A DNA stretch of 3,757 nucleotides, taken from positions 1 to 3,757 of the IMG/VR virus record IMGVR_UViG_2681813227_000020. One strand, 5' to 3'. Under the pieces are notes generated by a model. The model worked only from the letters and a program-made list of their open reading frames with translations. It ran no database searches and was not told the DNA's origin. This stretch comes from a virus. Lineage: Duplodnaviria; Heunggongvirae; Uroviricota; Caudoviricetes. Position numbers and translations under genes: made by a program. Below, piece after piece: positions 1,464 to 3,757 of this stretch (the stretch's first letter is position 1; each line of letters begins with the position of its first letter).

Positions 1464-1642
1464 AGCATCCTCACGATAATATCCGGGTAGGCACGATCAC
1501 TTTCGTCTACTCCGTTACAAAGCGAGGCTGGGTATTTCCCGGCCTTTCTGTTATCAGAAATCCACTGAAAGCACAGCGGCTGGCTGAGGAGATAAATAAT
1601 AAACGGGGGGCTGTATGCACAAAGCATCTCCTGTTGAGTTAA
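1460..1642 (+). CDS. orf60a: Small exo-xis region protein Orf60a-like, 60 aa from ATG 1460 (62 aa if ATG 1454 is used)
   Basis: ATG at 1460 overlaps the exo stop (TGA 1461-1463) as ATGA; an in-frame ATG also exists at 1454. Protein [60 protein letters not shown]. Size and position match lambda orf60a immediately downstream of exo. Confidence 0.7.
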
Positions 1643-1886: not shown

Positions 1887-2098
1887 CACCTCAGCAAGAA
1901 AACGCCCTTCGCAGCATTGCCCGTCTGGCTAACTCTGAAATCAAAAAAGCCAGACAGCAGTTTCCGGATAAAAACGTCGATGACATTTGCCGTAGCGTAC
2001 TGAAGAAGCACCGCGAAACGGTAACGCTGATGGGATTCACACCGACTCATTTAAGCCTGGCAATCGGTATGTTAAACGGCGTCTTTAAGGAACGGTGA
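1883..2098 (+). CDS. orf61: Small exo-xis region protein in the orf61 position, 71 aa from ATG 1883 (93 aa if ATG 1817 is used)
   Basis: Open frame 1817..2098. The stretch from ATG 1883 (MTPQQENALRSIARLANSEIKKARQQFPDKNVDDICRSVLKKHRETVTLMGFTPTHLSLAIGMLNGVFKER) looks like a genuine small helical protein. The 22 codons from 1817 (MHSSGSGLHILCAYACRHGTCS) are Cys/His-rich, low quality, and overlap the micro-ORF frame. Gene symbol is positional (between orf63 and orf73), not sequence-verified. Confidence 0.55.
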   Translation: MTPQQENALRSIARLANSEIKKARQQFPDKNVDDICRSVLKKHRETVTLMGFTPTHLSLAIGMLNGVFKER

Positions 2099-2117
2099 AC
2101 ATGAAAAGCAAAATCAT

Positions 2118-2147
2118 CAGGGAGCTACAGGCTCCTTTTTTATTATT
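2118..2147 (+). terminator. Candidate rho-independent terminator inside the operon (hairpin GGAGC-tacag-GCTCC followed by TTTTTTATTATT)
   Basis: Stem GGAGC 2121-2125 pairs with GCTCC 2131-2135 around a 5-nt loop, extendable by A-U and G-U pairs at 2119-2120 / 2136-2137, then a T-run from 2136. Lies in the 98-nt gap between the orf61-position gene and orf73. Confidence 0.45.
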
Positions 2148-2196
2148 CGCATTCACCCTCAAGCGTATTAACCAACAATTCAGGGATTAATGAAAG

Positions 2197-2418
2197 ATGG
2201 CAGACCTCATTGATTCAGCATCAGAAATTGAAGAATTACAGCGCAACACAGCAATAAAAATGCGCCGCCTGAACCACCAGGCTATATCTGCCACTCATTG
2301 TTGTGAGTGTGGCGATCCCATAGATGAGCGAAGACGCCTGGCCGTTCAGGGTTGTCGGACTTGTGCAAGTTGCCAGGAGGATCTGGAGCTTATCAGTAAA
2401 CAGAGAGGTTCGAAGTGA
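2197..2418 (+). CDS. orf73: TraR/DksA-family C4 zinc-finger protein (lambda Orf73-like), 73 aa
   Basis: Protein MADLIDSASEIEELQRNTAIKMRRLNHQAISATHCCECGDPIDERRRLAVQGCRTCASCQEDLELISKQRGSK. Acidic N-terminal helix (D3, D6, E10, E12, E13) followed by Cx2C (C35, C38) ... Cx2C (C56, C59) with an extra Cys at 53, the hallmark architecture of TraR-like proteins. 73 aa, as lambda orf73. Stop overlaps ea22 start (GTGA at 2415-2418). Confidence 0.85.
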   Translation: MADLIDSASEIEELQRNTAIKMRRLNHQAISATHCCECGDPIDERRRLAVQGCRTCASCQEDLELISKQRGSK

Positions 2419-3053
2419 GCGAAATTAACTATCAGGAACTGCGTGAAGCGGCAGCGCAGGCAATGCATGACGACTGGGGATTTGATGTGGACCTTTTCCA
2501 TGAGATGGTAACACCATCGATTGTGCTGGCACTGCTGGATGAACGGGAAAGAAACCAGCAATACATCAAACGCCGCGACCAGGAGAACGAGGAGATTGCG
2601 CTTACGGTTGGGAAGCTGCGTGTTGAGCTTGAAGCAGCAGAGAACAACCTTATTGATAGTGAATGCCATGTTGCTGAACTGGAAGAAGCTCTACGCGATA
2701 AGCAGGCGTTACTTGAAGCCTCAGAAAAGCGCAACGCAAAATTACAAAGCGAGAATGCATACATCCGCAACCGGTACAAAGAACTGGACCTATTAATCGG
2801 GAAAAACATTCTGGTCATGCAGGCTGCCATTATCGAATGGCAGGCAACTGGCGACGCTAAGAGCGGACTAGCATGGATTTATAACACACTGTTTGGCCCT
2901 GGCGAATTACCGGACGAATCTGAGAAAGATGCTCAGGCCTACTTTAATCGCAAATATGCACCGATTGACGAAAAGCTTATGGCGCTTCACAAGTGGTTTT
3001 GGGAACAAAGTGAAGCCGAGCGCGCCGCTGGCATTCGCATCAAAGGAGAGTGA
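2415..3053 (+). CDS. ea22: Ea22-family protein, 212 aa, with a central coiled-coil segment
   Basis: GTG start at 2415 with SD AGAGAGG (2403-2409) 5 nt upstream. N-terminus MSEINYQELREAAAQAMHDDWGFDVDLFHEMVTPSIVLALLDERERNQQYIKRRDQENEEIALTVGKLRVEL and C-terminus ...AERAAGIRIKGE resemble my recollection of lambda Ea22, while the middle (heptad-like, E/A/L/K-rich: ELEAAENNLIDSECHVAELEEALRDKQALLEASEKRNAKLQSENAYIRNRYKELDLL) is different and longer (212 vs 182 aa in lambda). Confidence 0.8.
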   Translation: MSEINYQELREAAAQAMHDDWGFDVDLFHEMVTPSIVLALLDERERNQQYIKRRDQENEEIALTVGKLRVELEAAENNLIDSECHVAELEEALRDKQALLEASEKRNAKLQSENAYIRNRYKELDLLIGKNILVMQAAIIEWQATGDAKSGLAWIYNTLFGPGELPDESEKDAQAYFNRKYAPIDEKLMALHKWFWEQSEAERAAGIRIKGE

Positions 3054-3054
3054 G

Positions 3055-3258
3055 ATGAACGGACAAATCTCAATTGTTCGACCGGGAGCATGTGACGATT
3101 GCGAGATACGAATGATTATTCGTCTGGCGATGGGGAAAACAATAACTGCTCTCATTACTCCAGAAAATCTCGCATTAGCATTAACCGGAAAGTCAGACCT
3201 GCCAGTAGAGCTAAAGCTGCGAAATGTTGAGATTAAGGTGAATATCAGCAATGAATAA
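3055..3258 (+). CDS. Hypothetical small protein, 67 aa, with one CxxC pair (C13, C16)
   Basis: ATG 3055 lies 1 nt after the ea22 stop (TGA 3051-3053), with a GGAG Shine-Dalgarno (AAAGGAGAG, 3042-3050) upstream inside the ea22 3' end. Protein MNGQISIVRPGACDDCEIRMIIRLAMGKTITALITPENLALALTGKSDLPVELKLRNVEIKVNISNE. The ORF-track entry 2893..3258 is this frame extended upstream into ea22. It occupies the position where lambda carries ea8.5, but I do not recognise the sequence. Confidence 0.6.
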   Translation: MNGQISIVRPGACDDCEIRMIIRLAMGKTITALITPENLALALTGKSDLPVELKLRNVEIKVNISNE

Positions 3259-3330: not shown

Positions 3331-3498
3331 ATGCACTTCCGAGTCACAGGTGAATGGAATGGAGAACCATTCAACAGAGTTATCGAAGCCGAGAACATCA
3401 GCGACTGCTATGACCACTGGATGATATGGGCGCAGATAGCACATGCAGAAGTAACCAATATTCGAATTGAAGAACTGAAAGAACACCAAGCCGCCTGA
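3331..3498 (+). CDS. Hypothetical small protein, 55 aa, conserved-looking prophage protein of unknown function
   Basis: ATG 3331 preceded by GGAG (3320-3323) at 7-nt spacing. Protein MHFRVTGEWNGEPFNRVIEAENISDCYDHWMIWAQIAHAEVTNIRIEELKEHQAA has a globular-looking composition (aromatic core residues, charged C-terminal helix). Stop TGA 3496-3498 lies in the loop of a strong intrinsic terminator. Below the ORF-track length cutoff. Possibly related to small DUF-type proteins found next to xis in E. coli prophages, but I cannot verify this. Confidence 0.55.
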   Translation: MHFRVTGEWNGEPFNRVIEAENISDCYDHWMIWAQIAHAEVTNIRIEELKEHQAA

Positions 3499-3512
3499 TG
3501 GCGGTTTTTTTA
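3488..3512 (+). terminator. Strong rho-independent terminator (CCGCC-tgat-GGCGG followed by TTTTTTT)
   Basis: Perfect 5-bp GC stem 3491-3495 / 3500-3504 with loop TGAT, extendable by G-U and A-U pairs at 3488-3490 / 3505-3507, followed by 7 T (3505-3511). The loop contains the stop codon of the 55-aa ORF. Confidence 0.7.
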
Positions 3513-3556
3513 TTACCTGATTTGCAGGTTCGATTCCATATTCGGAGATAGCACTC

Positions 3557-3757
3557 ATGCAACACGAACTACAACCTGATTCACTGGTTGATTTGAAATT
3601 CATCATGGCTGATACTGGCTTTGGTAAAACCTTCATCTATGACCGGATTAAGTCCGGCGACCTGCCAAAAGCCAAAGTTATCCACGGGCGAGCAAGATGG
3701 TTATATCGTGACCATTGTGAGTTCAAAAATAAACTCTTAAGCCGCGCCAATGGGTAA
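3557..3757 (+). CDS. xis: Excisionase / AlpA-family helix-turn-helix DNA-binding protein, 66 aa
   Basis: ATG 3557 with GGAGA (3544-3548) 8 nt upstream. Protein MQHELQPDSLVDLKFIMADTGFGKTFIYDRIKSGDLPKAKVIHGRARWLYRDHCEFKNKLLSRANG. The motif around FIMADTGFGKTFIYDRIKSGDLPKAKVIHGRARW is typical of AlpA/Xis-type HTH proteins of E. coli prophages and is not lambda Xis. The position at the end of the left operon fits an excisionase followed by an integrase outside the window. Confidence 0.8.
   Translation: MQHELQPDSLVDLKFIMADTGFGKTFIYDRIKSGDLPKAKVIHGRARWLYRDHCEFKNKLLSRANG

Follow-up and report, generated by a model that had tools for sequence, protein, structure and literature searches.

What does a 73-residue protein, encoded between the recombination genes and the excisionase of a lambdoid prophage, do to the host in which it is made? 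The window analysed here, a stretch of 3,757 nucleotides from the IMG/VR virus record IMGVR_UViG_2681813227_000020, contains such a gene, and a first-pass annotation had proposed that its product is a TraR/DksA-like regulator that binds the secondary channel of RNA polymerase. The reading frame lies on the + strand (2197..2418) and extends from the ATG at 2197 to the TGA at 2416-2418, giving a translated protein of 73 amino acids (MADLIDSASEIEELQRNTAIKMRRLNHQAISATHCCECGDPIDERRRLAVQGCRTCASCQEDLELISKQRGSK). Cysteines were read at positions 35, 36, 38, 53, 56 and 59. The four zinc ligands named earlier (C35/C38/C56/C59) were correctly placed, while C36 and C53 had gone unmentioned. These four residues form a CxxC-x17-CxxC pattern of putative zinc ligands, and the corresponding C4 zinc knuckle (C35-x2-C38 ... 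C56-x2-C59; 2299..2373) falls within the Pfam match at residues 33-64. The acidic N-terminal helix that had been described was borne out as well, since residues 1-15 hold five acids (D3, D6, E10, E12, E13) and no basic residue. Here the protein carries a DxxDxA motif (D3-L-I-D6-S-A8; codons 2203..2220). Alignment further assigned the R46/R47 codons within the knuckle (2332-2337) to R48/R49 of TraR, and the E64 codon (2386..2388), an acidic residue of the C-terminal helix, to TraR E66. Two antisense ORFs across the gene (2187-2294 and 2346-2669) showed no matches to Pfam or PHROG families.

Orf73 is a protein of the DksA/TraR family. The profile search that had been suggested as a check on the 73-aa protein returned Pfam PF01258 (zf-dskA_traR) with 35.8 bits (E=7.7e-9), above the curated gathering cutoff of 24.9, with residues 33-64 aligned to profile positions 4-35 of 36. 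PHROG 54 ('DksA-like zinc-finger protein') was matched over the whole length (E=3.8e-25), and in E. coli OkiPb01711 (NZ_AP042673) the product is named 'TraR/DksA family transcriptional regulator' by PGAP. NCBIfam TIGR02419 ('phage/conjugal plasmid C-4 type zinc finger protein, TraR family') was a near miss: residues 3-64 aligned to positions 1-64 of 64 (E=1.1e-14), and the score of 54.8 bits lay below the cutoff of 59.7. NF010268 ('conjugal transfer protein TraR'), the equivalog model of F TraR, gave 26.3 bits, far under its cutoff of 108. Given these two sub-cutoff scores, Orf73 is homologous to F TraR without being its orthologue. A single-sequence search of the PDB matched YbiI (2kgo) and F TraR (5w1s, 6n57 and related RNA polymerase complexes), and HMMER aligned Orf73 residues 1-64 collinearly with residues 1-66 of F TraR (5w1s_M; E=8e-5).

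We then built an alignment of Orf73 with its lambda counterpart, with F TraR and with seven more distant phage homologs of 35-60% identity, drawn from GenBank records of Enterobacter, Klebsiella, Yersinia P2-like, Pseudomonas, Vibrio and Salmonella phages. Across these 10 homologs (35-97% identity), the invariant columns were D6, A8, C35, C38, I42, R46, R47, C56, C59 and E64, and position D3 was D or E in all 10. With the exception of I42, the invariant columns are positions published as functional in TraR, namely the DxxDxA motif, the zinc ligands, R48/R49 and the acid of the C-terminal helix. In TraR, R48/R49 contact the rim helices and beta'Si3 (PMC9239242). Their equivalents in Orf73, together with that of E66, are R46/R47 and E64, all invariant in the alignment. 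The acidic C-terminal-helix residue is also one of four hallmarks listed for Orf73 in PMC8614690. A profile built from the alignment reached DksA (1tjl, E=5e-4) and YbiI in the PDB; its match to TraR is circular, because TraR belongs to the profile. Short, single-helix, ppGpp-independent homologs have been grouped as the TraR-like subfamily (Gopalkrishnan et al. 2017/2022), and by its sequence Orf73 would belong to this subfamily, with 73 aa and, in place of the DksA coiled coil, a single predicted N-terminal helix. A single-sequence AlphaFold2 model (pLDDT 60, pTM 0.30) placed a helix at 5-30, a knuckle and a second helix at 56-70. With a pLDDT of only 60, this model lends the fold weak support, and the low-confidence layout of helix, zinc knuckle and helix is compatible with the TraR type. 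For lambda Orf73, a published AlphaFold model has a pLDDT of 93 (PMC8614690), and in the same work Donaldson modelled Orf73, including the phi24B and 933W proteins, on the TraR-RNA polymerase complex.

The comparison with lambda bears most directly on function. In tblastn searches, Orf73 of the window was identical to the copy of phage 933W (73/73), a protein that occurs in many Stx phages, and it matched lambda Orf73 at 71/73 positions (97.3%). Relative to lambda, the two substitutions are I4L and V49A, both conservative; at the nucleotide level, four synonymous differences accompany the two non-synonymous ones. I4L falls on one of the 'x' positions of DxxDxA, and the TraR residue opposite V49A is I51, so that D3, D6, A8, the four zinc cysteines, R46/R47 and E64 are all avoided. 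We infer that L4 and A49 leave the activity of the protein intact. The 100 nt upstream of the gene were identical in 933W and nearly identical in lambda. In NC_001416, lambda orf73 lies at about 30392-30613, in an unannotated gap between orf61 and ea22 (start 30395). The near-identity to the lambda and 933W copies, together with the place between orf61 and ea22, makes the gene a member of the Orf73 orthologue group of the lambdoid exo-xis region. We note that the RefSeq records of both lambda (locus L002, 2893-3114) and 933W (L003, 4873-5094) leave orf73 unannotated despite its experimental characterisation. A scan of IMG/VR gave 80 loci (L005-L084), in which all orf73 copies were 97-100% identical. 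For this reason they provide no independent evidence of residue conservation, and they served for junction and hairpin statistics only.

Within a lambdoid E. coli prophage, the window makes up the 'exo-xis' section of the leftward early (pL) operon, and its convincing genes are all on the + strand. In order, these are bet (1-786, RecT family), exo (783-1463, YqaJ), orf60a (about 1460-1642, DUF1317), orf63 (1615-1806, DUF1382), orf61 (1883-2098, PHROG 303), orf73 (PF01258, PHROG 54), a mosaic variant of ea22 (2415-3053, 212 aa, Pfam Ead_Ea22 from residue 2), a 67-aa ORF (3055-3258, PHROG 1222), a 55-aa orf55 homolog (3331-3498, 96% identical to lambda Orf55) and an excisionase gene of TorI type (torI/xis, 3557-3757). 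Megablast found the region in 554 phage records, chiefly Stx-converting and lambda-like phages; of 5426 complete E. coli genomes, 4545 contain it as well. The sole full-length match (99.0%) was a prophage of E. coli OkiPb01711, with the repressor, cIII, kil and gam upstream of the stretch and torI, adjoining dsdC, at its end. At this prophage end (L004, 9557-9757), no integrase lies beside the excisionase gene, whose product belongs to the TorI (KplE1/CPS-53) type rather than to that of lambda Xis. The start of orf61 is ambiguous, with 93 aa from ATG 1817 in 933W, 71 aa from ATG 1883 according to PGAP and JLK-2012, and 61 aa in lambda; the 93-aa product of 933W is oddly labelled 'cell division protein ZapA'. 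The 67-aa ORF, whose PHROG is of unknown function, takes the place of lambda ea8.5, and no ea8.5 homolog was found within the window. A strong hairpin resembling an intrinsic terminator (3488-3517) follows the orf55 homolog. On the basis of modelling, a resemblance of lambda Orf55 to T7 Gp2, an inhibitor of RNA polymerase, has been proposed (PMC8614690), and the operon may therefore encode a second small protein directed at RNA polymerase besides Orf73.

As the first-pass annotation had stated, orf73 is coupled directly to ea22: the GTG start of ea22 overlaps the stop codon of orf73 (GTGA, 2415-2418). The junction (GAAGTGAGCG) was identical in lambda, in 933W and in 80/80 IMG/VR loci. The ORF that follows it stops after five codons (VSEIN*) in 16 of the 80 loci and is otherwise 55 to 272 aa long, which shows that the pairing of orf73 with ea22 is not obligatory. 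In the window, the first ~75 aa of Ea22 resemble lambda Ea22 and the remainder diverges (212 aa vs 182 aa in lambda). PGAP called the ea22 gene of the closest genome a partial pseudogene.

For the lambda protein, characterised in 2022 by Gopalkrishnan et al. (PMC9239242), the activity proposed here has been measured. When induced, lambda Orf73 complements a dksA-null strain, and in competition with labelled DksA for RNA polymerase it performs as well as TraR. Its IC50 for inhibition of rrnB P1 is ~50 nM without ppGpp, rpsT P2 is likewise inhibited, and D3N or D6N cripples the protein in vitro (PMC9239242). Expressed from pL in a defective prophage, it lowered pre-rRNA to 29% and rpsT mRNA to 45%; growth slowed after about 1 h and plating fell ~10^4-fold, and ectopic expression had the same effects (PMC9239242). 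The two experiments proposed in the earlier reading, transcription from rrnB P1 and growth inhibition on overexpression, have thus already turned out positive for lambda Orf73. Lysogens with intact orf73 produced 3-4 fold more phage after mitomycin C induction than deletion or D3A/D6A mutants, and the lambda lytic promoters tested were not affected by the protein (PMC9239242). Taken together, the Pfam match, the similarity to TraR over the full length and the lambda experiments (PMC9239242) uphold the assignment as a TraR-family regulator that acts through the secondary channel without ppGpp. The further description of a 'ppGpp-like' reprogramming held in part. Inhibition of rRNA and ribosomal-protein promoters fits it, but thrABC, argI and rpoH P3 showed little or no activation by lambda Orf73 in vitro (PMC9239242). 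Because the positively regulated promoters tested were not activated, lambda Orf73 is not a full mimic of ppGpp/DksA, and the inhibitory half of the TraR programme alone has been demonstrated for it.

By analogy with this 97%-identical lambda protein, Orf73 of the window is very probably a ppGpp-independent secondary-channel regulator of RNA polymerase that shuts down rRNA and ribosomal-protein promoters early after pL induction and so diverts host resources to the phage. Expression would come from the pL operon once the phage infects the host or the prophage is induced. The N-terminal helix with its DxxDxA motif (D3, D6, A8) would then enter the secondary channel of the host RNA polymerase, while the C4 zinc domain with R46/R47 would lie against beta'Si3 and the rim of the channel, and the C-terminal helix would contact betaSi1. 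We infer these contacts from the cryo-EM structures of TraR. Without ppGpp, the bound protein would destabilise the open complexes of rRNA and ribosomal-protein promoters. The host would then make ribosomes and grow more slowly, transcription capacity would be freed for the phage and its yield could rise several-fold.

The same mechanism might serve a mainly pro-lysogenic role, in which slower growth and reduced ribosome synthesis of the host shift the lysis-lysogeny decision in favour of lysogeny and host survival. We consider this possible, if doubtful, as the main role. According to the summary of Zdrojewska et al. 2019 given in PMC8614690, deletion of orf73 in lambda and Stx phages led to lower host survival after infection and to lower lysogenisation, and in the account drawn from PMC8614690 both orf73 and the translationally overlapped ea22 are classed as pro-lysogenic. 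The conserved GTGA overlap with ea22 would fit such a shared role. However, the 3-4 fold higher yield with intact orf73 after mitomycin C is a pro-lytic effect (PMC9239242), and the pairing with ea22 is not obligatory, as the 16/80 loci with a five-codon downstream ORF show. The two roles can coexist, since the pro-lytic effect was seen on induction and the pro-lysogenic one on infection, and both may hold, depending on the route of entry.

A second alternative, which we regard as improbable, places the principal target in the initiation of host DNA replication, for example at the dnaA promoters, in line with the 'bin' phenotype of the exo-xis region. Earlier work, as cited in PMC9239242, implicates orf73, ea22, ea8.5 and orf55 in a block of host replication initiation, and at high concentration lambda Orf73 inhibits dnaA P2 (IC50 ~420 nM) and dnaA P1 in vitro (PMC9239242). 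Yet compared with rrnB P1, the IC50 is roughly 8-fold higher at dnaA P2 and 30-fold higher at dnaA P1, and when Orf73 was made from a single-copy prophage, dnaA mRNA was little or not affected while pre-rRNA fell more than 3-fold (PMC9239242). That the TraR likeness is a zinc knuckle only, in a small zinc-finger protein whose target is DNA or another protein rather than RNA polymerase, is hardly credible: the PF01258 match is indeed confined to residues 33-64 and the TIGR02419 and NF010268 scores both lie under their cutoffs, but the similarity to TraR spans residues 1-64 and includes DxxDxA, the conserved positions are those that contact RNA polymerase, and the 97%-identical lambda protein occupies the DksA site on the enzyme (PMC9239242).

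Returning to the regulator of rRNA and ribosomal-protein promoters, its expression had been described as occurring only after antitermination. The top + strand hit of our terminator scan was a strong terminator-like hairpin inside orf60a, just past exo (1524..1556). This is the expected position of lambda tL3, a terminator that pKD46 (lambda 31088-33241) presumably carries after exo. The hairpin has the same sequence as the predicted t1 of PMC4195576 (Table 4). A second terminator-like hairpin (+ strand, GGGAGC-TACA-GGCTCC followed by a T-run; 2119..2147) lies 50 nt upstream of orf73, and it also appeared in the MFE fold. It is identical in lambda and 933W, its core is kept in 80/80 IMG/VR loci, and it corresponds to the t2 predicted by Bloch et al. 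2014 (PMC4195576, Table 4). In all, five + strand terminator-like sites of our scan coincided with t1-t5 of that study. Bloch et al. 2014 also predicted a promoter p1 with the -35 element TCATCA and the -10 element TTTTATTAT (PMC4195576). This sequence is present in the window (2114-2146), where it overlaps the hairpin and its T-run, and it is weak relative to the consensus (TCATCA 3/6, TTTTAT 4/6, 18-nt spacer). Our own sigma-70 scan returned no + strand promoter upstream of orf73.

Transcript levels differ between phages. In phi24B, qPCR showed orf73/ea22 mRNA as high as that of N, and after induction with H2O2 the orf73 and ea22 mRNAs were the highest of the region; in lambda, the mRNAs of orf73, ea22 and ea8.5 were lower than those of genes upstream of the hairpin (PMC4195576). 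Expression exclusively after antitermination is therefore not established: the location downstream of the pL terminators, including the hairpin at 2119-2147, and the lower mRNA levels in lambda speak for it, while the phi24B mRNA level and the predicted p1 (PMC4195576) speak against it.

The hairpin is spanned by a small reading frame. A 31-aa ORF (2095..2190, + strand), for which neither a Pfam nor a PHROG family was found, starts with a GTG that overlaps the stop codon of orf61 (GTGA). Its TAA in turn overlaps the ATG of a 7-codon ORF (MKDGRPH; 2190..2213, + strand), which overlaps the ATG of orf73 out of frame, so that a chain of small ORFs covers 2095-2213. Among the lambda peptides from ribosome profiling that PMC8614690 quotes are a 31-aa 'orf2313' and a 7-aa 'orf2311'. 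From their size, and for the former also its position, the two ORFs of the window probably correspond to these peptides, as far as the quoted entries permit the comparison. Ribosomes translating across the hairpin could influence termination or the initiation of orf73. One may thus conceive of a local layer of control, composed of the hairpin within the translated 31-aa ORF, the 7-codon ORF and the weak predicted promoter, by which orf73-ea22 of Stx-type phages may escape strict pL/N control, for instance under oxidative stress. We rate this as rather unlikely; if true, host shut-down would be tuned separately from the recombination genes.

The gene, the family and the mechanism of Orf73 have already been published, and the locus carries little weight as a discovery. 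A 73-aa regulator was nevertheless named correctly from raw sequence, which makes the case usable as a positive control. Whether orf73 acts in lysis, lysogeny or both matters in Stx phages, in which prophage induction drives toxin production.

Among known systems, the closest counterparts are lambda Orf73 (alias Orf2310) and the Orf73 of Stx phage 933W, which share with the copy of the window its length, its placement between orf61 and ea22 and the GTGA overlap. Downstream, the genes of the window differ in a mosaic Ea22, a TorI-type excisionase and the lack of ea8.5. [quoted passage not shown] F-plasmid TraR (PDB 5W1S; cryo-EM 6N57/6N58, 6PSQ-6PSV) is likewise a protein of 73 aa with a single N-terminal helix bearing DxxDxA; both proteins also have the C4 zinc domain, the RR pair and an acid in the C-terminal helix. 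Its IC50 at rrnB P1 equals that of lambda Orf73, and both act independently of ppGpp (PMC9239242). The differences are a sequence identity of about 30% (22/73), the origin of TraR from a conjugative tra operon rather than a phage early operon, a change of the TraR motif ExxRK to ExxRL in Orf73 (PMC8614690), and the activation of promoters by TraR, which lambda Orf73 does not share (PMC9239242). DksA of E. coli (PDB 1TJL) and YbiI (PDB 2KGO) have the C4 zinc-finger domain PF01258 in common with Orf73, and DksA binds the same site on RNA polymerase as lambda Orf73 (PMC9239242). DksA, in contrast, comprises 151 aa, presents two Asp at the tip of a coiled coil and requires ppGpp for full activity, whereas TraR and Orf73 each use one helix and work unaided, at lower concentrations.
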